DNA of 63,614 nt, counting the filler, from Stramenopiles sp. TOSAG23-2 (Eukaryota), in the NCBI GenBank assembly GCA_900128395.1. It is 8 parts of 8 records of this genome, joined end to end, with 100 filler letters (N's around TTAATTAATTAA, not from the genome) between each part and the next. Parts side by side here need not be neighbours in the genome. Positions count along the whole stretch, not along the records: positions 17,799 to 26,582 come from LT650165.1; 7 more parts are not named here. One strand, 5' to 3'. The position numbers were made by a program, and so were the translations under genes. This document shows positions 8,810 through 53,290 of this stretch, in pieces. Numbering within the stretch: the stretch's first letter is position 1; each line of letters begins with the position of its first letter. The notes under the pieces are model-generated. The model made no database searches. It had not been told where the DNA came from and saw only the letters and a list, made by a program, of their open reading frames with translations.

Positions 8810-8909
8810 NNNNNNNNNNNNNNNNNNNNNNNNNNNNNNNNNNNNNNNNNNNNTTAATTAATTAANNNNNNNNNNNNNNNNNNNNNNNNNNNNNNNNNNN
8901 NNNNNNNNN
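8810..8909. other. Artificial contig linker (N44-TTAATTAATTAA-N44); identical linkers at 17699-17798, 26583-26682, 35463-35562, 44332-44431, 53191-53290, 62048-62147
   Basis: Seven identical 100-bp N-padded six-frame stop linkers. Intervening contigs are 8789, 8784, 8780, 8769, 8759 and 8757 bp, i.e. size-sorted. Confidence 0.98.
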
Positions 8910-17126: not shown

Positions 17127-17816
17127 TGTTATTGTTGTTCCTTTTTAATGTAATATTTATAAATGCTTTTACAACTATTTGAATGGATAATATAATAGTA
17201 ATAATGATAATAATATTATATATGTTGAAACAGTCGTCTCTTCTATCTTTTTAATTTTGTTTTCCTTTTTGTTTTCTTGGGTTTTTACAAAAGAAAGTTA
17301 TTATGTGTATAATAGTATACTACATTTTATTATAGTATTATAAGCTAGAGAGGATCTTTGTTTATGTTGCTGAAATTTAAAATAAAATCTAAAATATGTT
17401 GATATTACATTAGCACAGACATAGCATGTATATCCACATGCGATTATTTTACTCATTTTTTGATGATGTGCTGAAATGCTGAAATTAAAAAATTAGGTTT
17501 AAGGTTAAAGTTGAATTATATATATAGACGTTTTAGTTTGGAGAAGAGCAATGGCACAATGCAAGAAGAAAAATAGAAATAATTATATTTAATATTGGTT
17601 AAAATCTAAGTTACTGTATAATATTTTTACACTTCTCGTGTTAAAGTAATATGCTCAATACTCAATCGCAAGAATAATATGTTATCCTACTATAGTAANN
17701 NNNNNNNNNNNNNNNNNNNNNNNNNNNNNNNNNNNNNNNNNNTTAATTAATTAANNNNNNNNNNNNNNNNNNNNNNNNNNNNNNNNNNNNNNNNNNNNAA
17801 TGCTAAAATTTTTTCT

Positions 17817-19295
17817 AAATTAGGCAGGACTTTCCTGCCTAAATTCAAAGCATGAAGATAGCATTAGAACCCTAATATTAACTATACAATACCCTAAGAC
17901 TAACCTTATAACAAATGTAAAAAAAGAGGGCATCATGATTTATTTCGTCTGTAATAATTATATATATTATTATTATTATTATTGTAGACATAGATAGACA
18001 AATCGAGATAGACAGAGCGAAAGGAAGAAAGGAAGGAAACAAAAAGGAACCATGGTAAATGCAACAAAAAAAACAAGAACAAAGAAAAGAAAATCTCGTA
18101 ATACAAGGCAAATAACCAACAGAGCTGTTGTTCGAGCTAGAATCCTAACTTGGAAAAATACAGACGTTGGTGCTTCTAGCTTATACGGGTACACACGGAA
18201 AATTAAAGAATTTCATGAGTTTTGCACCAACAACGAACCGTCTGTTCTACTTACAGAGAGGCAAGCCAACACATTACAAAAAAAATTGAAGTTACCAGAT
18301 ACGAAAAAAATTGCATGCCAATTTAATCTTGCAAAGCTAAAGCTTAGCGGGTATGAGAGCCATAGTTGGTAATGCCAACAATGGTAAATACATTGCAAAA
18401 ACGACAAAAAGGTATAAATCAAAACCTGTAGCAGAATTGTCAATTTCCACAGTTCGGCGTAGGATGAGCCCATATGTTGTTACAAATGCTACTACTACTA
18501 CTACAGGTAGTAGTAGTGTTCCTGCTCCTAGTGCCTCTATTAATAATTGGACAACAAGGGCTAATGTACGTACACCAACAGGAGAACAACTAGGTGAAAT
18601 ACGTGCATATTTGGAGCAAGAGCGTAATGTAGATGTTAATGGAACTGGTCCGATGAGTGTTGATGATCCTGTTTTCCGTTTTTAAGTGTATGATATTTAT
18701 TTTTTATTTAGTGGAAGTAGCCATTAGAATATCCTATCACTTAATGACATTGTCGCGGTTTAGGTACAAACGTCCCTAAATGTCTTCGTATTATAAAGTG
18801 AATTTGTAGTATGTGCCAATGGACATAGGCTTTAAAACCATATTTATACTTAAAAAGGGAATTAGAATACTAAATATTTTTCTGAGAAAAATATTGACGA
18901 AAATTTGACTGTATTTGTGCATATATTTTGATTTATGTACATACATTGGTATTGGCGCGTTGTATGAAGAATGTCCATGATCGTACTATACTTCGAATTG
19001 CACTTCGTTCATAGTTTGAACATTTACCAACTCGCATAGTTTTTCATAACAATAAATAAAAAGATAAATCGGCTGAGGAGAGCCGTTCAAACTTATATGT
19101 ATTGTATAGAAATACAAAAAAATAATCAAACAGCACATGGCGTATATAGTTAGAGTTAGGGTTTTTAGATCATATTACCATACTAAATTCATAATTTATA
19201 TACTACCAAGTACACCGAAGGTGTACTTGGTGATATTCCCTTCTTATACCATCTTTTACCATCTGAATTTAGGCAGTGATTTTCCTGCCTAAATT
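17817..19295 (+). mobile_element. Putative internally deleted tyrosine-recombinase (Crypton-like) element bounded by related palindromic sites
   Basis: Palindromes TTAGGCAG-N7-CTGCCTAA (17820-17842) and AATTTAGGCAG-N8-CTGCCTAAATT (19266-19295) flank two overlapping broken ORFs (18052-18685). Confidence 0.5.
18052..18685 (+). pseudogene. Frameshifted or deleted remnant resembling the N- and C-termini of Crypton-type recombinase proteins
   Basis: SSLYGYTRKIKEFHEFC resembles the first helix of YR core-binding domains. KRYKSKPVAELSISTVRRRM resembles Crypton C-termini. Frame changes near 18353-18372. No R-H-R-Y catalytic region is present. Confidence 0.4.
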
Positions 19296-19750
19296 GTCCT
19301 CATTTTAAAATTATACTTAAACTGGTAATTAGAATACAATAATTATAAATATAAAAATAGCATTGAATATCACTGTTTTTACATACTAAGCTAAACGACT
19401 GCCCTGCAATCGATAAAAAAGAAAGGAAAGATATATGGAGGCTAATGTACAGTCTGAGAGATACATCAACAGTAGCAATTTGTTCATTGTAGATATAGTA
19501 GAGTTATCTATATCGGAACGTGCTTTCAATATGTTGTTTGGAGAGTTTGATGAGCAGCCCGGTATGATGAATGGTGAGGAGAAAAATCTAGTGGTGTAGA
19601 ATGCGTAGATCGGGATCCAATAGGCCTATTGATGGATAGAGAATTGACTCGTTTTCAGTTTAGTTGGTTTACAATGAGTCTTCCTTGGTACCAGGACTAA
19701 CATATAAGAGTTGGAGAGTTTTTGTATTTGACGTTTAAAATTTAAATTAT

Positions 19751-20137
19751 ATGTATTTTATTTCTCGACAAAAGTACAAAAGAAGCCATGATAATGCACG
19801 TGCTAACGGTTCTCACTCTAATGCATCAATAGTTCCATTCACAGTAGATACGCTGGGTAATTTTTGCTCAGTTGCTATTACCATTTTAAAAGCAGTCGCT
19901 AAAATCAAATTTGCAAAGATCTCGAACATAGCCGAAGTAAAGGAGCTTGCAGCTTCCAATTGGATTTCTACTACATGTAGGGATATACAAACTGCGATTA
20001 TTAAAACTTGCGCTTATAATAATCGTTTTGCTTCAAAATGTGCATTTGGTGAGTCGTATAATAAATTGTACCCCGGTACAATTTATTCTCCGCCTTCCTA
20101 TGATGTTCGTTTTTCATCAATTGCTACGAGTAGTTGA
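19751..20137 (+). mobile_element. 3' fragment of an RLE-type (CRE/R2-like) non-LTR retrotransposon ORF
   Basis: QKYK...IVPFTVDTLGNF..VAITILKAVA...RDIQTAIIK..A matches the K..KY...F.P...ET.G......L....SI.IQR.NA pattern of restriction-like endonuclease C-termini. Followed directly by dispersed repeat B. Confidence 0.65.
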
Positions 20138-20142
20138 TACCA

Positions 20143-20280
20143 TCTATTTACCTTCAATGGTATTCTCTATTATGGGAATATCAACACACTAGTGTGAGAT
20201 AGATTATTTCAATTATTGTATTCTTTTGAAGAGGAGTATAGGAATTATTATGAGTAAATTAAAAAATGAATTATGCGTAA
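20143..20280 (+). repeat. Dispersed repeat B (second copy at about 39434-39580)
   Basis: Shared TTTACCTTCA.TGG.ATTCTCTATTATG..GAATATCAACACACTAGTGTGAGATA..ATTCTTTTGAAGAG..AGGAATTAT.ATGAGTAAATT..AATTATGCGTA on two different contigs. Confidence 0.92.
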
Positions 20281-20716
20281 ACTTATTATATCATATATGC
20301 GTAAACTTAATTATTAATATATATTAAAACATGATAGAAAACAAATAAAAGAAAACACTTGATATATTTAACTTTTGTCCCGCACTCTAAACAAACACAA
20401 AAAATAAAATTCGTATGATACCAAAAGTTATTTTTCAACTTCAAAAATGATTAAATTTGTCGTGCTGATTGCAATATTCCAATATGCAATCATACTACTT
20501 CGTCAACACTCAAGTATTAATGAATCACGCCCAATTAGACCCACCCTCTTCGCAGATCCCAGAATTTAGTCGCGGTGAAGAAGTTCATGTCGATTCTGTT
20601 GCATATGAGTCCATGGACACTGATGGTCATTTCCATCCTATATCTGAATCGATGTATATGCATTTATGTTTATGTATTAAGAGGATCTTTTACTTCGACA
20701 ACCTCACCTTTTTCGA

Positions 20717-20911
20717 ATGAACCCGACGTCCAGCGCGTTCAACGAGAGCGCACGGAAGGATAGAAACCTACTCATGCTTGTAGACTATTAGTTTACAGAG
20801 ACGCATTAGAGCTTTACTATATAGTAGGATAGAATATTATTCTTGAGATTGAGTATTGAGCAATTATTACTTAGCACGGGAAGTAAAATTATTATAACTT
20901 GGATTTTAACC
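20717..20911 (+). repeat. Dispersed repeat A, long copy. Other copies: ~147-368 (+), 14596-14698 (-), 14812-14877 (+), 17597-17698 (-), 26529-26582 (+), 61797-61866 (+), partial ~49036-49068 (-)
   Basis: Consensus AGAGCTTTACTATAGTAGGATA.CATATTATTCTTGCGATTGAGTATTGAGCATATTACTTAGCACGGGAAGTAAAATTATTATAACTT.GATTTTAACC seen on five contigs. Two contigs terminate inside it. Confidence 0.95.
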
Positions 20912-20982
20912 GTCATTATTAAGAGAATTATTTTTAAAATATGATATTATAAACATTATCATATTCGTATGATACTATGATA

Positions 20983-22215
20983 TCATGCATAACACGACAA
21001 GACCTTTTTAGAATCCCCACAATATAACTCACCCTCCCTTAATACGTTTCCACATAAATTGTGTGTGATCCTTACGTATCCTCTATTATTAATATTGATT
21101 TGTGGTGAGCATTCACATAATTTATCACATTTTTGAAGGTTGTTCCATGCGGTTTCAAACCAAAATAAGTTATTTGCACATTTTCCATAATTTGATCTTT
21201 CATACGGAACAATATCTTTAATTGCTAATAGTTGAGATTGGCATATTTTAATTTTATCTTTACAATTTTGAAAATCGGGCATGGCTCCCCAATTAGAATC
21301 AAAAACTCTGCAAAATTTTATATCATCTTTATATTTCCGCCCCAACTGATCAAACCAAATACCAAGCGCAGCATCCTCCATCCACATTCTATGATCCAAT
21401 ATATCAAAATCTTTTGCTATGTAAAAAACTAAGTTAATACTCAGAACATGACCCCACCCAGAGGCAAAAAATGGTAAGAAATTATCATGTATTAAATGCG
21501 ATTTTAGCATACTAAATTCAATGTACCAAGGATTTGATTTATCCTGTTCCGGCTTTTGAAACCTAAAATCCCCCCACCACCATGCTACATTGTTAATATT
21601 AGGTTTGTTAAGAATATTAGTAGATAATTTATATGCGATTTCATTTAGATTCGGTAATGTATCATCATCCAGTTTCATTACACATGAATAAGTATTGAAA
21701 TTTTCGACTACAAATTTATAAAATTCTAACATTTTCATTGCGCTTGTCTTGTATGTATCGACCGTAGATAAAAAAATCATGTCCTTAAATCTATCATTTT
21801 CTTTTGAAATCTTAGAATTTAAAATGTTGCACTCGCGGGACTTACAAACAGAACTCCCAAGAATAAAAATTATGTCAAATTCAATCATTTCATTCTTATT
21901 CACGTTAGATAAAGCTTTTTTTATCCAAGTTTTTCTAGCCAATGCTCTTCTTTTGAAATTTCCTCTCCCACTTAATATACCTATTAAAATCTTTGCGCGT
22001 TTCAAGGGATTTACACCAATCTCATTTATATTTCGTTTTCCAGTGAAAGGGACCACACTCTGTGACAAATTTAGATGTTCTTGCAAATCAAGTGTGTTGA
22101 AAAATACTAACGCAGTTAATAATAACAAATAAATTATAATTAATTTCAAACCGCTTCTAGTTCTTATAAGCTTTCTATGCTTAGTAACCCATGTTGTTTT
22201 TTCTTTCCAATACAT
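20983..22215 (-). CDS. GT31 beta-1,3-glycosyltransferase (B3GALNT2/B3GALT-like), type II membrane protein
   Basis: N-terminal TM segment; ILIGILS...KRRALARKTW; MKLDDD (DxD); WWGDFR; FASGWGHVLS; EDAALGIW. Confidence 0.92.
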   Translation of the reverse strand: MYWKEKTTWVTKHRKLIRTRSGLKLIIIYLLLLTALVFFNTLDLQEHLNLSQSVVPFTGKRNINEIGVNPLKRAKILIGILSGRGNFKRRALARKTWIKKALSNVNKNEMIEFDIIFILGSSVCKSRECNILNSKISKENDRFKDMIFLSTVDTYKTSAMKMLEFYKFVVENFNTYSCVMKLDDDTLPNLNEIAYKLSTNILNKPNINNVAWWWGDFRFQKPEQDKSNPWYIEFSMLKSHLIHDNFLPFFASGWGHVLSINLVFYIAKDFDILDHRMWMEDAALGIWFDQLGRKYKDDIKFCRVFDSNWGAMPDFQNCKDKIKICQSQLLAIKDIVPYERSNYGKCANNLFWFETAWNNLQKCDKLCECSPQININNRGYVRITHNLCGNVLREGELYCGDSKKVLSCYA

Positions 22216-22880
22216 ATATCCAATTGACTAGTATACATGAGAGGTTAGTATTTACAAGTTCAAATGGAAAACATATCCATTTTGTGCTGGGTATTTTGGA
22301 AATTAAAATAATTTGAATATGAAATAATATTAATATATTATTATCATCACTGTCGTCCCAATGCCAATGTATCGATAATAGTTTGTAACCGAAGCTGTGA
22401 TGGTTTAATTTTAATAGTAAACAGTGTAAAATAGATTCCTGTTAGAAAAATAAACCGTATTACTAATAGTTTAATGTCAATTTCAATAGTAAACAGCTAT
22501 AAAGCGGACGGCAACAAACGGCGTTTTCCATTTTGCCAAAAAAATCACATCCGACGGATTCAATAGTCTAAAATCCAGGGTTGTAGCGTTTAGCCCGGCG
22601 GGATCTAAGGCCTTAGGCTGAAAAGCCGAGGCATTGGATAACAATAGTTAATTTATTTTATTATACCCTTACGCTCAGTATTCGTACTGTTTCCTTCCTA
22701 TATAAGCGATTAGCTTAAGGATACAGCAGAACTCTTCACATATATTATTTTGTTGTCGCCTAAGTTGCGCAACTATGCATATATTTGTGACTCGTTGTTA
22801 ATATATATAATATATATATATACATCCTTGCTTGATACCTATCTCGCTTTTTCCCTTTTTTTTCTTTCAGTTACCCCCCT

Positions 22881-23246
22881 CTAAAAACACACATCGTCGA
22901 TATGTATTAAGGAAGGGTAGGTACTGTGATGGTGGGTGGGAGAGATATTGTTACTAATCTTATCACTATCTTTTCTCTGCTTTTGATTAAATCGCTTGAC
23001 TTTTAGCTAGGCGTCAATGATTTCTTGCAGTGGATCTAAATTGCGAAACCTATATTGCTTAGGAATTTGATAAAAACCTGCATCCGTTTTAGTAAACAAC
23101 AACACTGCATCTACTTTGTGTTTTTTCCTGAAGTCGTGTATCATGCTCTCAACTAACGTGGATTTCCCAGACCTTCTGGGAGCAATGACACTAATAAATG
23201 CGTCTTGAGGAATACCCAAGACTTTATGAAGGAGTAGCTTCTTCAC
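22881..23246 (-). pseudogene. Decayed A32/FtsK-type viral DNA-packaging ATPase fragment (Polinton-like virus or virophage type)
   Basis: FISVIAPRRSGKST (Walker A) followed by AVLLFTKT..F.QIP..Y. In-frame TAG at 23007-23009, after which the frame continues LKVKRFNQKQRKDSDKISNNI..LIHIDDV (possible Walker B). Confidence 0.65.
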
Positions 23247-23306
23247 CTAACTCTAAATCACAGACAGAGGAACCATCTTTTGAATACTAAATAATTTACC
23301 AAACTT

Positions 23307-23392
23307 TATAAATCATTTTTGATTTGAGATGTTAATGAACGGGAGTAAAAGAAATTTATATAATATTATGAGTAAGAGAACATTTTATATAA
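23307..23392 (+). repeat. Dispersed repeat C (second copy ~14712-14800; inverted partial copy ~14512-14534)
   Basis: TATAAATCATTTTTGATTTGAGATGTTAATGAACGGG..AGTAAAAGAAATTTATATA..ATGAGTAAGAGAACATTTTATAT is nearly identical on two contigs. Confidence 0.92.
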
Positions 23393-23701
23393 TATATAAA
23401 CTAAAATAATTTATAAATAAATTATGCGTAAATTAATTATACCTGGTATGACCCAAGCCGGGCAAGCTGGGCAAGGCTCAAGGCTGATAAGATCCGTACG
23501 ATGGGTAAATACCTTAATATTAATCCGGGGATCCCTTGATATTCCCGATATTTTCGTATACTAATTACCTATGATTTAGTATAACATGTGTTTTGCTCCC
23601 CTTTTCCTTTTTCCTGTACTCAAAGGCTACGGAAATTTAGTAGACGACACTGTAAAATGGTATGCCTGGTATGCATAATATATTTATTTTCGCACACATT
23701 T

Positions 23702-25498
23702 TTATTTTTGTGACAAAATATTACTATTTTCAACACCATTCAGCACACGTATCAATATCGTAACAACAGTATCCGTGCATAAAGCTATTGATGAATTTGT
23801 TTTGTAAACAGACTCAGAGTGCTGTATACAAAATGCATTTGCTGCCAATAAAGGTGGTTCTTCGTAATATAAATCTAAATTCGCCTCTACGCTACCAAAA
23901 TTCAATGGCAATTGGAACAGTTTAAATTTAGATGAGTATCTACGAGCTTCGTCAATTACCCGTTTAATCAAAGCTTTTTCTAAGGTATTGATCATTTCAT
24001 CAACTAATGGATTTGTTACTTGGTTATTATCCTCAATGAAATCAATTGCACTTAGAAATGTATCGAACCCGGCCATATATTCAAACATTGCTTCTTTTCC
24101 ATTTGGTAGCTTGACTGGAAATGCAAGTAATGGCTCTGCACTTTTTGGAGCTTTCTTCCCTAGGGTAGTTAAAACATTTTCAATTTTTTTCGTCAAGGCA
24201 GCAACTAATTTCATTGCATTTGGACTGTCGTTTAAAACTGGTCGATTCCGAATAAATCGCCGAGCGGCATCTTTCGGTCTTTGAGATGAATAAAATTTCA
24301 ACATTCCATACATTTGGTTATCAATTTCCACCGGCACTTCAAATAACGATTTACTGCTCCCTGGCGTGTTTTCTCCTGAAGTGCGAATAATATTACTATC
24401 AATATCATCGTTCTTAGTATTTCCAATATTTGTACCTTGATTTACATCGTTTTTCATTAACAATTTTCTTTTTGAAACTATTTGCTGTGTAATAATATTT
24501 ATTACGCTATTTTCATTTTCTTTTCCTAAAATGCCAATTTCGGCAGCAAATACCTTTGCAGCACTTTCCGCATCGATGTGATCAGGAACTTCAAAACGTT
24601 TGGTCGCATTATCTACTACCAAGTTTAAGACTATTTTTGAAAGTGGTGACAATGTATCACCAAACGTATTGCCATCATCTTTTTTTTGATCATTCAAAGC
24701 ATGATTGTTATTCCAACTCCTATGACGATTTTGTAAAGATTCAGATATGACCTTTTGAATCAGAATTGTTCTATATGTTTTAAATTTATCGTTTGTTTTC
24801 AAAATTCCATTTGATGTTAAAAAGAAATCAATTTTGGAATAAATATTATTTTCTACCCTTGGATTAAACATAAATTGCTTTACTTTATCGTTTCCGAAAT
24901 CAACAGGAAAGACTATTTCAGATTTTATATTTAACTTATCCATATTATTCTTATGTTTCGTAAATATTGATGAATACTGTAGTTCAAGTTCCTTTAATAA
25001 TTTTTGCGCTGCAACCTCTGAGTCAATATTAAACTCTTTCATGAAGTTACGAACGGTGTCCATAAAAGATGAGTTTTCATAATGTAACATTTGTACCGTC
25101 TTACCATCGTCTAATGTCACTGGAATTTGTACAATAATTTTATTTGATTTTGCACTTTTATTTCCGTCAATAGTTTTCTTCGCTGATATGTATTCATTAT
25201 ATTTTTGAATTAAGTGCTTACTCAAGCCTGCTACAAGCTCGATATATTTACTTTCTTTTCCGCGTACATTAAATCCTTCCATATTCAACCAATTTTTAGC
25301 AGCCATTTGAGGATTTTGACGAATGTCATTTGAATTTATCTGCACTGTCTTATCAAGACCTTCAATATTAATTGGAAATTTCAAAACATCAGATTTTACA
25401 GTTTTAATACTTATAATACAAATGGTGAAGAAAAAATAAGATATTGCAAGTATTATAAAATTAACCTTGAATCTTCCTTTTCCAATGTTTGTATACAT
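23702..25498 (-). CDS. Secreted or membrane-anchored protein with about 7 tandem ~75-aa PFU-like repeats
   Basis: Hydrophobic N-terminus. Repeats follow the pattern hhxhPVxhxxG...h.h.....p..AA..F (e.g. LFEVPVEIDNQMYGMLKFYSSQRPKDAARRFI; LFQLPLNFGSVEANLDLYYEEPPLLAANAFC). Confidence 0.8.
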   Translation of the reverse strand: MYTNIGKGRFKVNFIILAISYFFFTICIISIKTVKSDVLKFPINIEGLDKTVQINSNDIRQNPQMAAKNWLNMEGFNVRGKESKYIELVAGLSKHLIQKYNEYISAKKTIDGNKSAKSNKIIVQIPVTLDDGKTVQMLHYENSSFMDTVRNFMKEFNIDSEVAAQKLLKELELQYSSIFTKHKNNMDKLNIKSEIVFPVDFGNDKVKQFMFNPRVENNIYSKIDFFLTSNGILKTNDKFKTYRTILIQKVISESLQNRHRSWNNNHALNDQKKDDGNTFGDTLSPLSKIVLNLVVDNATKRFEVPDHIDAESAAKVFAAEIGILGKENENSVINIITQQIVSKRKLLMKNDVNQGTNIGNTKNDDIDSNIIRTSGENTPGSSKSLFEVPVEIDNQMYGMLKFYSSQRPKDAARRFIRNRPVLNDSPNAMKLVAALTKKIENVLTTLGKKAPKSAEPLLAFPVKLPNGKEAMFEYMAGFDTFLSAIDFIEDNNQVTNPLVDEMINTLEKALIKRVIDEARRYSSKFKLFQLPLNFGSVEANLDLYYEEPPLLAANAFCIQHSESVYKTNSSIALCTDTVVTILIRVLNGVENSNILSQK

Positions 25499-26841
25499 CG
25501 TTTCTATGTATACTAATGTGGAAGAAAGCGCTGTCTAATTAAATAACAATTGCTAATATATCGTGTATATAATGTAGTTGTTCATGTCATGGTGTCATCT
25601 CTTCAGAGATGTATAATGCAGTAATAATAATTATTGTTTGTTATAAATATAATATTTTTTGTTGGGGGGTGCTTTGCTGGGCTTGCTGGGCTTGCCAGGC
25701 CCAGCTGGCACTCCAGCATTCGGCATTCCAGCACTCCATGGCACTCGACTATTTATATTAGTTAGATTTACATGTTTGCTAAAGCACTTTCCTACTAGTA
25801 AGATAATATTACTTAATTTTTGTACTTGTTGTGATTTAAAAAAGTAGTCTAGTATAGACACAGCATTATTGTTAAAATAAATCACGGATATTTTGTAACA
25901 AAAATCCAATTTTAGGAAAATCGGGAGGTGGGATTTTGCCAACTTCACGCCGCCGAGTCTTCGCTTGCGCTCAGAATTCCTGATTATGGGCTGTAGCCTG
26001 TACAGTAGCAGGCGAAGATGAGGGGATCGAGTATATTTATATTACAATGTGGTGGCATGCTGGGCATGCCTGGCATGGTGCTACCCTTAAAGCACCCAAA
26101 ACTGTGCACTTAAAACTATTCACTATGGGGGAAATATTCATCATTTTTTCTATATTTTCGGATATTTGCTATTTTTTACAAATATATGAAAAATAAAATT
26201 GGTATTTAAGAAAACAATATGTATTTTCAATAGTAAATAGTGTTAATTTGTTAGTGCACACAGTTGGGCGGTTTGCACAGTTTTGGGCGCTTACTGTAAA
26301 GAGGGTACTGATGTAGCACTGCGATAGCAGAGTGCCAGACTGTACATTAATTTGATGGTTTGTACCGTATCCTTCCTGGCTTCCAGCACACAAGTGCACA
26401 ATACAAATTTAAATTAAAATTAATCTAAATTTTAAAGAGCAAGATTTCGTATCTTTTTCACATCATTCGGGTAACTATCGCAAGACTTGTTAAAATTTGG
26501 GATAATGCTATTTACCTGCTAATTGACAGAGCTTTACTATAGTAGGATAACATATATTATTCTTGCGATTGAGTATTGAGCANNNNNNNNNNNNNNNNNN
26601 NNNNNNNNNNNNNNNNNNNNNNNNNNTTAATTAATTAANNNNNNNNNNNNNNNNNNNNNNNNNNNNNNNNNNNNNNNNNNNNTATGTGATAATTAATATT
26701 ATCCATGTAGAATCATAAAATCATTCTGAACAAATTAAACGTATCAAAATAAGAATATATATATATATATATATATGAACATAACGAAAAAGCAAAACAA
26801 ATTAAACATAAATATATATCATACCTTTTTTTGTAGTAAAT

Positions 26842-34831: not shown

Positions 34832-35894
34832 ATAATCCCAGATACAATAATATAAACGCATATATAATGCTTTACAAATGCTATGATAGATTGAAGAGAA
34901 AATATGACTTTATATGTATATTCAAGATTGTATGTATGTATGAAACAACAGGTATTATTTACCGACGTGCATTGGTAGTATTTTTTTAAAAATAAGAAAT
35001 GTGCAGATCTTTTTTAATATGTATAAATTTATTTCATTTATTATATTTCAAATCAATTATTGCCAATAATAATTATTATTAATTCTATTTAGTGTATTTA
35101 TATTATTATACCAGGTAAGTATTGTGCAATTTGCTAGATCCTAAATGAAAGCAGTCACACAGCACCAATAAGTTCAAATTTGGCATTCCTGTGGCACCTG
35201 GCATACCTGTACTGTATTATTTAGAATTATTAGTATCATCATTGCCTATTTTAATTTATATACTACCAGGTATTCATTATTCTATTTTTCATATATACCT
35301 TAAATATTTTTCAAATGAATTACAGGAGTGTAACACGTGTTTTAAAATAAGCCTAATAACAAAGAAAAAAAAAACTAACAAAATTGTTAGTATTAAAATA
35401 AACCATTTTATAATGAATTTTTAAAATACCTGCTGCTTCAATGGTAGAAACACTTGCACTTTNNNNNNNNNNNNNNNNNNNNNNNNNNNNNNNNNNNNNN
35501 NNNNNNTTAATTAATTAANNNNNNNNNNNNNNNNNNNNNNNNNNNNNNNNNNNNNNNNNNNNTAAAACCATTAGATAAAAATAATAAAGAAATTCCATTT
35601 ATGGAATTAAGTGATGTTAAAGAAGGAAGCACAAATGTAACAACATAACATCGTAAAAAAAAAAGGTATATATTGAACGTGAAAATCACATGGTGTGAGT
35701 GAGAGCATGTGTATAAAAAAAAAAAGCTTTTTAAAATCACACGAAAAAATAGAATTTGTTTTACGCGTGTGCGTGTATTTTGTTATTATAATTTATGTGT
35801 GGTTTTATTTTGAGACTGTGTGTGGTGTAAAAAATTAGTCCTCTCTCTCTCTCTCTCTCTCTCTCTGTCTGTCTGGTCCAGCTATTATAAATTT

Positions 35895-44331: not shown

Positions 44332-44522
44332 NNNNNNNNNNNNNNNNNNNNNNNNNNNNNNNNNNNNNNNNNNNNTTAATTAATTAANNNNNNNNNNNNN
44401 NNNNNNNNNNNNNNNNNNNNNNNNNNNNNNNTATACATATAAAAAAGAAACAAGAATTTTGAAAATTTATAAACATTCTTCATACCTCCATATTATAGAT
44501 ATAATTTTTTTTAAAATATAAA

Positions 44523-52987: not shown

Positions 52988-53290
52988 GATTAATAACGGT
53001 TCGTCGAAATTTCAAAATTAAAATGGCAAGGTATTTATGTTAACAATTTTTTTCATGATATATCTATACACATACACACGCATATATATTCTTAAGAATT
53101 ACATATATCTATATGTATATATATTTCTACTAAATAATTTACAATGAAATCATTTATCTATATTCCTGAAATATCAATTTACATATTTATNNNNNNNNNN
53201 NNNNNNNNNNNNNNNNNNNNNNNNNNNNNNNNNNTTAATTAATTAANNNNNNNNNNNNNNNNNNNNNNNNNNNNNNNNNNNNNNNNNNNN

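Follow-up and report, generated by a model that had tools for sequence, protein, structure and literature searches.

A probable internally deleted Crypton-like element with conserved palindromic sites in Stramenopiles sp. TOSAG23-2

Within a 63,614-nucleotide (nt) stretch of the genome assembly of Stramenopiles sp. TOSAG23-2, referred to here as the window, positions 17799–19311 probably represent the right-hand ~1.5 kb of an internally deleted, frameshifted and non-autonomous copy of a Crypton-like transposon, in which palindromes built from the 9-mer TTAGGCAGG are conserved cis sites predicted to bind the recombinase. Because the link between gene and sites comes from one locus, we hold this reading with moderate confidence. 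Judged from its sequence, the window copy is incapable of making its own enzyme, and an intact element would encode a 754-residue tyrosine recombinase, P0047. The two palindromes recur in a miniature relative that carries no gene, which makes them good candidates for the sites at which the recombinase acts.

The original prediction had described a broken open reading frame (ORF) with a core-binding-like start, a Crypton-like end and no catalytic core, and the comparison with relatives bore out each of these points. The ORF is split into two halves in different frames, with the following features.

18052–18372 and 18341–18685, plus strand: ORF1 and ORF2, in different frames.
18052–18360, plus strand: ORF1 remnant, the first ~102 codons from the ATG at 18052, comprising a basic tail and the first helices of the core-binding domain.
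18357–18358, no strand: deletion junction, with ~548 codons (~1.64 kb) missing and the frame shifted by +1.
18359–18685, plus strand: ORF2 remnant, the last ~108 codons of the recombinase and the stop codon, in the next frame.

A homologue search for a full-length copy, proposed at the outset, returned P0047 as a match to both halves. Residues 3–99 of this 754-residue protein correspond to 18070–18360 (96/97 identical) and residues 645–752 to 18350–18673 (106 of 108 identical). P0045 is 99% identical over its residues 1–103 (18052–18360), as is P0003 to the ORF2 remnant. Residues 100–647 of P0047, the stretch carrying every conserved catalytic motif, are gone from the window and the two halves are out of frame, leaving the window copy with no encoded catalytic domain. 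P0047 is, in effect, the undeleted form of the window's gene. In its protein sequence, Ala-Ile follows both breakpoints, a hint that a short repeat may have bordered the deletion. The database entry of P0047 is a hypothetical protein of a "bacterium", and its contig was probably mis-binned into a bacterial metagenome-assembled genome. A model in which ORF1 and ORF2 are exons separated by a 61-nt GT-AG intron (18351–18411) was rejected, because relatives read through this segment in the frame of ORF2 (AIVGNANNGKY...). ORF2 also contains several ACT codons in a row and, after them, the reverse complement AGT (18489–18517; TTTTT-G-SSS), which together form an 11-bp palindrome.

Logan contigs of four runs were compared with the window at a likeness of at least 85%. 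A 342-nt contig of run X3 (record 18) matches 18220–18357 and continues with 204 nt unlike the window. A 1,677-nt contig of run X4 (record 24) matches 18025–18357 only, with 1,265 and 79 further letters on its two sides, and record 25 of the same run starts at 18358. Contigs of two marine metagenomes thus break exactly at 18357|18358, providing independent support for the deletion. Run X3, of which ~55% was read, gave almost no cover of 18358–18760, and run X1, possibly the run from which the assembly derives, bridges the junction by only 30 nt. A contig from the poly(A) metatranscriptome X16 covers 18424–18671 with no differences, which places this sequence in an RNA library and does not identify the transcribed copy. 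The breaks lie elsewhere in other members of the family: in P0006, 68 N-terminal residues are fused to the last 14, in P0010, 79 residues to ~100 C-terminal residues, and P0045 and P0048 diverge after ~117 and ~235 residues, respectively. With longer forms in other data and four other copies broken elsewhere, the earlier description of the window copy as a non-autonomous deletion derivative fits.

Searches at E ≤1e-3 with ORF1 and ORF2 found 8 and 3 proteins, respectively, which belong to one family of ~680–754-residue proteins; a profile search gave 28 matches at the same threshold. The named relatives come from Phytophthora, from Ochromonadaceae (an ochromonad) and from an MMETSP transcript. 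In an alignment of 30 family members (A3; 31 with P0047, alignment A7), the informative rows agree at R203 (27/27), K230 (28/28), R312 (30/30) and Y347 (27/27), position H309 is His in 20 rows and Tyr in 10, and position 338 is His in 8 and Trp in 14 of 26. The full-length relatives therefore carry the catalytic R-K-H/Y-R-H/W-Y set in canonical order. With hhalign, all six catalytic residues fall in register with those of Cre (R173, K201, H289, R292, W315 and Y324). The family aligned with Cre, XerC, XerD and lambda Int together at an E value of 1.6e-4 and a probability of 50.8%; lambda Int alone gave an insignificant 20-column match to the family profile at the start of the core-binding domain.

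An AlphaFold (AF2) model of P0047, with a mean predicted local distance difference test score (pLDDT) of 79.5, has the two-domain fold of a core-binding and a catalytic domain. The top Foldseek matches of this model are to Cre (E 3.8e-4, TMt 0.55–0.60), and all 50 rows listed by VIA-align are tyrosine recombinases or Ndc10. Among these are Flp, with Z 16.2 and a root-mean-square deviation (rmsd) of 3.2 over 228 residues, and Cre, with Z 15.6 and an rmsd of 3.5 over 259 residues within model residues 28–339; the model aligns over residues ~27–345 with residues 28–320 of Cre. The recombinase-domain test that had been suggested for a full-length homologue thus gave a Cre/Flp fold (Z ~15–16) with the catalytic set kept. 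ORF1 corresponds to the N-terminal core-binding part, which in the model is aligned with Cre, and ORF2 to the C-terminus of a Crypton-type enzyme. From the alignments and the model, we assign the family as predicted Crypton-type tyrosine recombinases with a Cre/Flp fold. Atlas neighbours, taken as leads only, include oomycete hypothetical proteins and NDC10_II, Phage_integrase and DUF3504 clusters, with GCR1_C/NDC10_II closest to the C-terminal part (0.85). The full-length proteins, of 682–754 residues, have no other Pfam domain, and their longest contigs, according to the protein records, are 3–6 kb; P0047 is recorded on 7 contigs of up to 3,993 nt, and the contigs of P0021 and its cluster measure 3.3–6.2 kb. 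A protein-alignment search for relatives in viral contigs and genome contigs found none.

The palindromes flanking this remnant were found where the original prediction had placed them.

17817–17845, no strand: palindrome 1 (site 1), identified by pattern search and folding, with its core TTAGGCAGGA-CTT-TCCTGCCTAA at 17820–17842.
19266–19295: palindrome 2 (site 2), with its pattern core at 19269–19292, inside the right conserved block described below.

The pattern TTAGGCAG-N(2–12)-CTGCCTAA has two matches in the window, at these two cores, and appeared in none of 100 dinucleotide shuffles. The 8-mer TTAGGCAG occurs four times in the window, in every case as an arm of palindrome 1 or 2 (expected 0.92), and 1 of 100 shuffles reached four copies. 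Likewise, the 9-mer TTAGGCAGG occurs in the window as three exact copies and one copy with a single difference, all in the palindrome blocks, arranged as inverted pairs around T-rich centres of 5–8 nt. The sites are 1449 nt apart, matching the predicted ~1.45 kb, and the arms, predicted at ~11 bp, are complementary at 10 of 11 positions in site 1 and at 11 of 11 in site 2. Palindrome 1 precedes the start codon by ~210 nt; palindrome 2 follows the stop codon by ~580 nt and is separated from the right end by 16 nt. This arrangement of arms and spacers agrees with the predicted core-site geometry of tyrosine recombinases. Aligned as direct repeats, the two sites score 44 over 34 columns, against 37 when they are aligned as inverted repeats, so the description of the spacers as similar and co-oriented was correct. 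The spacers were also said to be asymmetric and 7–8 bp long; the lengths hold (GACTTTC, 7 nt, in site 1; TGATTTTC, 8 nt, in site 2), but on folding the stems run into them. As a single strand, site 1 forms a 10-bp stem with a 3-nt loop (-10.1 kcal/mol, z -4.4), and site 2 forms 11 bp, a bulge and 2 bp around a 3-nt loop (-9.8 kcal/mol, z -5.7); in neither case did any of 200 shuffles equal the value. Because only 3 nt are left in each loop, self-complementarity extends into the nominal spacer of both sites.

With one palindrome upstream and one downstream of the ORF, the palindromes could be read as expression signals of the gene, such as a promoter and a terminator, or as chance hairpins. We consider this extremely unlikely, since the palindromes and their flanks are kept in the gene-less unit, the pattern is absent from all 100 shuffles, and an Rfam scan of 17799–21000 and 17799–26582 gave one far sub-threshold chance match and no family near threshold. 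A tRNA scan of the same two segments found none. The neighbourhood holds further hairpins. One in the 3' region (19205–19231) is perfect, with a 12-bp stem and a GAA loop (-12.2 kcal/mol, z -6.4), and another, with a 13-bp stem, lies at 20060–20087; five of the seven perfect hairpins in the window (stem of at least 9 bp with at least 3 G/C) fall within 17820–20087 (2.3 kb). Telomere-like CCCTAA words occur 3' of site 1 (17870–17905) and likewise just right of site 1 in the gene-less unit, and TTAGGG occurs ~100 nt before site 2 in the window (19150–19166).

Scans with the palindrome pattern returned at least 123 stretches in metagenome contigs, 69 stretches in viral contigs, none of them related, and, with a longer pattern, 9 in genome contigs, all bacterial hairpins. 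Among the metagenome matches listed, one contig is related to the window; it is 27,352 nt long and holds three loci (L056–L058), and 11,912 nt (11.9 kb) of it were examined. A 25-nt TTAGGCAG...CTGCCTAA palindrome with the flanks gccgggcc... and ...tgggtaat recurs at more than 30 metagenome loci (L001–L123, one project) and belongs to an unrelated repeat family.

The contig holds a 1166-nt unit twice, head to tail, the copies being identical at 1166 of 1166 positions. In the orientation of the window, the unit starts with CTAGAAGAATTAGGCAGGCTG..., a single half-site; a third palindrome, which is slightly degenerate, comes after ~90 nt, site 1 after ~400 nt, and site 2 another 723 nt on; the unit ends with ...CCTGCCTAAATTGTCCTCATTTTAAAAT, 16 nt after site 2. 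Its termini are CTAGAAG... and ...TTTTAAAAT, and its two ends share the inverted TTAGGCAGG motif. Each unit thus has seven half-sites (left tip, third palindrome, and sites 1 and 2), with spacers of 6, 7 and 8 nt, in keeping with the arm-and-spacer layout of lox, FRT and dif. The two units together hold 12 exact copies of TTAGGCAGG and 2 with one difference, and neither the 63.6-kb window nor the 11.9 kb examined of the L056 contig has an exact copy outside these blocks. The centre of site 2 in L056 is fully symmetric (GAAATTTC) and therefore gives no direction. We also considered the motif ATAGCATT, all six occurrences of which in the 11.9 kb lie within the two copies, and set it aside, as it occurs 10 times in the 63.6-kb window and is not clearly enriched. 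The unit lies between a JmjC gene on one side and DUF3089 and palmitoyl-thioesterase genes on the other, and therefore in a eukaryotic chromosome. Its interior is unrelated to that of the window and contains no ORF of at least 100 residues and no recombinase remnant. The similarity between the two is confined to two blocks.

17799–17853, plus strand: left conserved block (55 nt), identical at 55 of 55 positions to both L056 copies; the similarity falls at 17854.
19261–19311, plus strand: right conserved block, holding palindrome 2 and the putative right end ...CATTTTAAAAT; 46/50 identical to L056 over 19261–19310.

The similarity extends beyond site 1 by 21 nt on the left and 11 nt on the right, and beyond the TTAGGCAG...CTGCCTAA core of site 2 by 8 nt on the left and 19 nt on the right. 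After ...TTTTAAAAT, three different sequences follow in the window, in L056 copy 1 and in L056 copy 2, and record 20 of run X3 ends at 19310. From this comparison, the right end of the element appears to be at 19311, 16 nt past palindrome 2. Directly outside it, at 19311–19337, is a 27-nt word, TTATACTTAAA..GG.AATTAGAATAC, with a second copy, 89% identical, inside the element at 18844–18870; the bin covering the outer copy (19297–19403) has a very high summed depth in runs X1 and X3. Within the 3' region of the element, 18809–19170 may be a separate small repeat: an X4 contig runs through 19015–19170 and then back to 18809–19028, so that the segment would form a circle or tandem of 362 nt, a contig of run X3 diverges from the window just left of 19169, and the summed depth at 18809–19170 is above that of the ORF.

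The position of these ends bears on the role of the palindromes. The original prediction took them as the borders of the element, and this part was not upheld, because the similarity to L056 passes both sites. It had also named palindromes occurring singly and without this ORF as evidence against it; they do occur without the ORF in L056, but as a set and not singly. In the corresponding mechanistic model, the palindromes are lox/dif-like crossover borders, and recombination between them frees a 1.45-kb circle and leaves one site behind. The arms of 8–11 bp, the spacers of 6–8 nt, the direct orientation with T-rich centres on the same strand, and the Cre/Flp fold of the enzyme family all speak for this model. 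However, the borders observed do not fall within a spacer: the conserved sequence continues through both sites, and the L056 unit runs from ~400 nt left of site 1 to 16 nt right of site 2. In addition, no contig in the four runs skips 17830–19280, and none joins the right end to the left end, which is weak evidence, as the left flank is absent from the window. We therefore regard this border model as improbable.

The left end of the window's element probably lies beyond the start of its contig. The window consists of contigs placed in order of size, from 8,809 down to 8,757 nt, and joined by seven linkers of the form N44-TTAATTAATTAA-N44 (8810–8909, 17699–17798, 26583–26682, 35463–35562, 44332–44431, 53191–53290 and 62048–62147), which are of the six-frame-stop type. 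As these linkers are artificial, neighbourhood across a linker carries no meaning. The contig of the element occupies 17799–26582 and also encodes an ordinary eukaryotic galactosyltransferase ORF; the G+C content is ~31%. Site 1 begins only 18 nt from the contig start, so the sequence left of 17799 in the window is unconnected with site 1, and the element likely continues leftward in the manner of the L056 unit. The contig start lies exactly 55 nt before the divergence point at 17854, and the contig's right end is 55 nt of a very high-depth repeat. A k-mer length of 55 is commonly used by assemblers, and both 55-nt ends would be assembler overlaps at repeat borders. A contig piece of run X1 begins at 17824, which would fit a branch at 17853|17854. 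Given such overlaps, the source genome probably holds at least one further copy of the left block with a different neighbour. Short repeats occur at 19725–20366, 20688–21000, 26528–26582 and 17644–17698 (reverse strand), so that two contigs of the window end in repeat. Their summed contig depth is thousands to tens of thousands, as opposed to ~15 nearby (run X1 and two metagenomes), and they are 84–86% identical to parts of L056; the repeat at 19725–20366 and elsewhere may be a very abundant miniature element.

Given that the blocks occur in L056 with no recombinase remnant, they could instead belong to a separate, hairpin-bearing non-autonomous family moved by an HUH/Rep-type or other enzyme, the recombinase remnant having come to lie between them by nesting or rearrangement. 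The crowding of hairpins described above and the very high-depth repeats just right of the element are in line with this model, and subterminal hairpins are typical of Rep transposons, as portrayed in parts of PMC10288648. Nesting, on the other hand, predicts that L056 interior sequence flanks the gene, and none is present in the window. The window contig and the 11.9 kb of L056–L058 yielded no Rep and no transposase of another kind, and the ends are not 5'-TC/CTRR-3'. Furthermore, run X4, which has the undeleted gene, also has contigs ~98% identical to the window that span the 3' region as far as the right block, although these are not joined to the gene. On balance, a separate family seems unlikely.

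We therefore favour the reading of one Crypton-like element, whose enzyme and sites would work as follows. Subunits of the recombinase would bind the palindromes and pair the ends of the element. Since the junctions lie outside the inverted pairs, the sites are favoured as elements that mark and pair the ends, and they may be of core type or accessory. The element would then be excised as a circle in which the right end is joined to the left end, and the circle would insert again into AT-rich DNA by way of a short sequence common to both, AAAT in the single case seen; this is a 4-nt ambiguity at both borders of the L056 unit and is trivial where the sequence is AT-rich. The only hint of such a circle is the head-to-tail junction in L056, which is as expected if a circle had re-entered a resident copy. 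As the deleted copy retains the sites, full-length copies could mobilise it in trans.

Several observations weigh against this reading. At the level of the enzyme, Pfam searches with the ORF halves and 40-odd relatives gave no family at threshold, including PF00589, PF12012 and PF16787, and below threshold only repeated N-terminal matches to the phage-integrase SAM-like domain (best E 2.7e-4); no integrase family was matched in PHROGs, and PDB sequence profiles found no recombinase. With respect to the sites, the observed junctions fall beyond the palindromes and the closest inverted half-sites are 29 nt apart, a non-canonical geometry for crossover, and the stems that reach into the spacers, together with a perfect palindrome in the relative, resemble a hairpin signal more than a lox-type spacer. 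As for the link between the two, a full-length gene and the palindromes were not seen on one DNA, the linkage being found in this window only, and in the L056 relative the sites exist with no trace of a recombinase. Finally, the tandem of identical L056 units, with its head-to-tail junction, could be an assembly loop.

The element resembles Cryptons, and CryptonS in particular, in several respects. Its protein is one large tyrosine recombinase whose C-terminal region is conserved and has no Pfam match to GCR1_C; its named relatives are stramenopile; a possible 4-nt direct repeat (AAAT) is found at the ends of the L056 unit; and the non-autonomous derivative shares only terminal parts with its master, as does CryptonI-1N1_RPro. 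Non-autonomous Cryptons are known, as noted in sections of PMC3212892 and PMC5753468. Kojima and Jurka 2011 (PMC3212892) describe Cryptons as lacking terminal inverted repeats and having only direct repeats of 4–6 bp, and most CryptonS as ending in TATGG. Here, by contrast, several inverted pairs of the 9-mer are present and the end is ...TTTTAAAAT rather than TATGG; a possible placement among the CryptonS is suggested by the named relatives and the Atlas leads. Portions of PMC3212892, PMC12130899 and PMC13465315 describe Cryptons as having no conserved structural features and borders that are hard to define, and our full-text literature search returned no Crypton with defined palindromic or recombinase-binding sites.

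Compared with Cre/loxP, Flp/FRT and XerCD/dif, the enzyme fold (Z 15–16) and the inverted 8–11-bp arms around 6–8 nt are alike, whereas here there are 3–4 sites per element, the junctions are outside the sites and the centres are partly or wholly self-complementary. Tyrosine-recombinase sites are given in an excerpt of PMC3212892 as inverted repeats of 11–13 bp around 6–8 bp, a layout that the TTAGGCAGG pairs of the window and L056 match, but with junctions outside the pairs. The model also aligns with D1–D2 of Ndc10 (Cbf2 N-terminal domain; PDB 4aco and 3sqi) at Z 13.9–14.2; Ndc10 and DUF3504 proteins are domesticated and catalytically dead, whereas the family described here keeps R-K-H/Y-R-H/W-Y. 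With Rep/HUH transposons (Helitron, IS200/IS605 and Replitron, as treated in parts of PMC10288648), the element shares a stable hairpin 16 nt inside the right end; it differs in that no Rep gene is present among the ORFs of the window contig or in L056–L058, its termini are not Helitron-like, and only a tyrosine recombinase is associated with it.

In one more alternative, the TTAGGCAGG palindromes are true recombination sites of a eukaryotic Crypton recombinase, and the DNA between them is exchangeable. The recombinase gene in the window and the unrelated 630-nt filler of the L056 unit would then be alternative "cassettes" of a lox-cassette or integron-like system in a protist, with sites able to form hairpins and recognised either folded or as duplex. 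Integrons (attC/IntI; PDB 2a3v, Z 12.8) likewise have unrelated stretches of DNA set apart by imperfect palindromes related to one another, and their enzyme is of the same class. Unlike in integrons, the host here is a eukaryote and the conserved blocks extend further than the palindromes themselves, and an array of different cassettes was not observed. An exchangeable-cassette system is, in our judgement, quite improbable, and we retain the interpretation of the palindromes as cis sites of a Crypton-like transposon.

No class of eukaryotic DNA transposons is less well understood than the Cryptons. The case described here brings together a 754-residue enzyme with an intact catalytic set, a specific inverted 9-mer and two natural "minimal substrates", namely the gutted copy in the window and the gene-less 1166-nt unit, which makes binding and recombination directly testable. 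If the sites work, the enzyme and its palindromes would constitute a compact new eukaryotic pair of recombinase and target.

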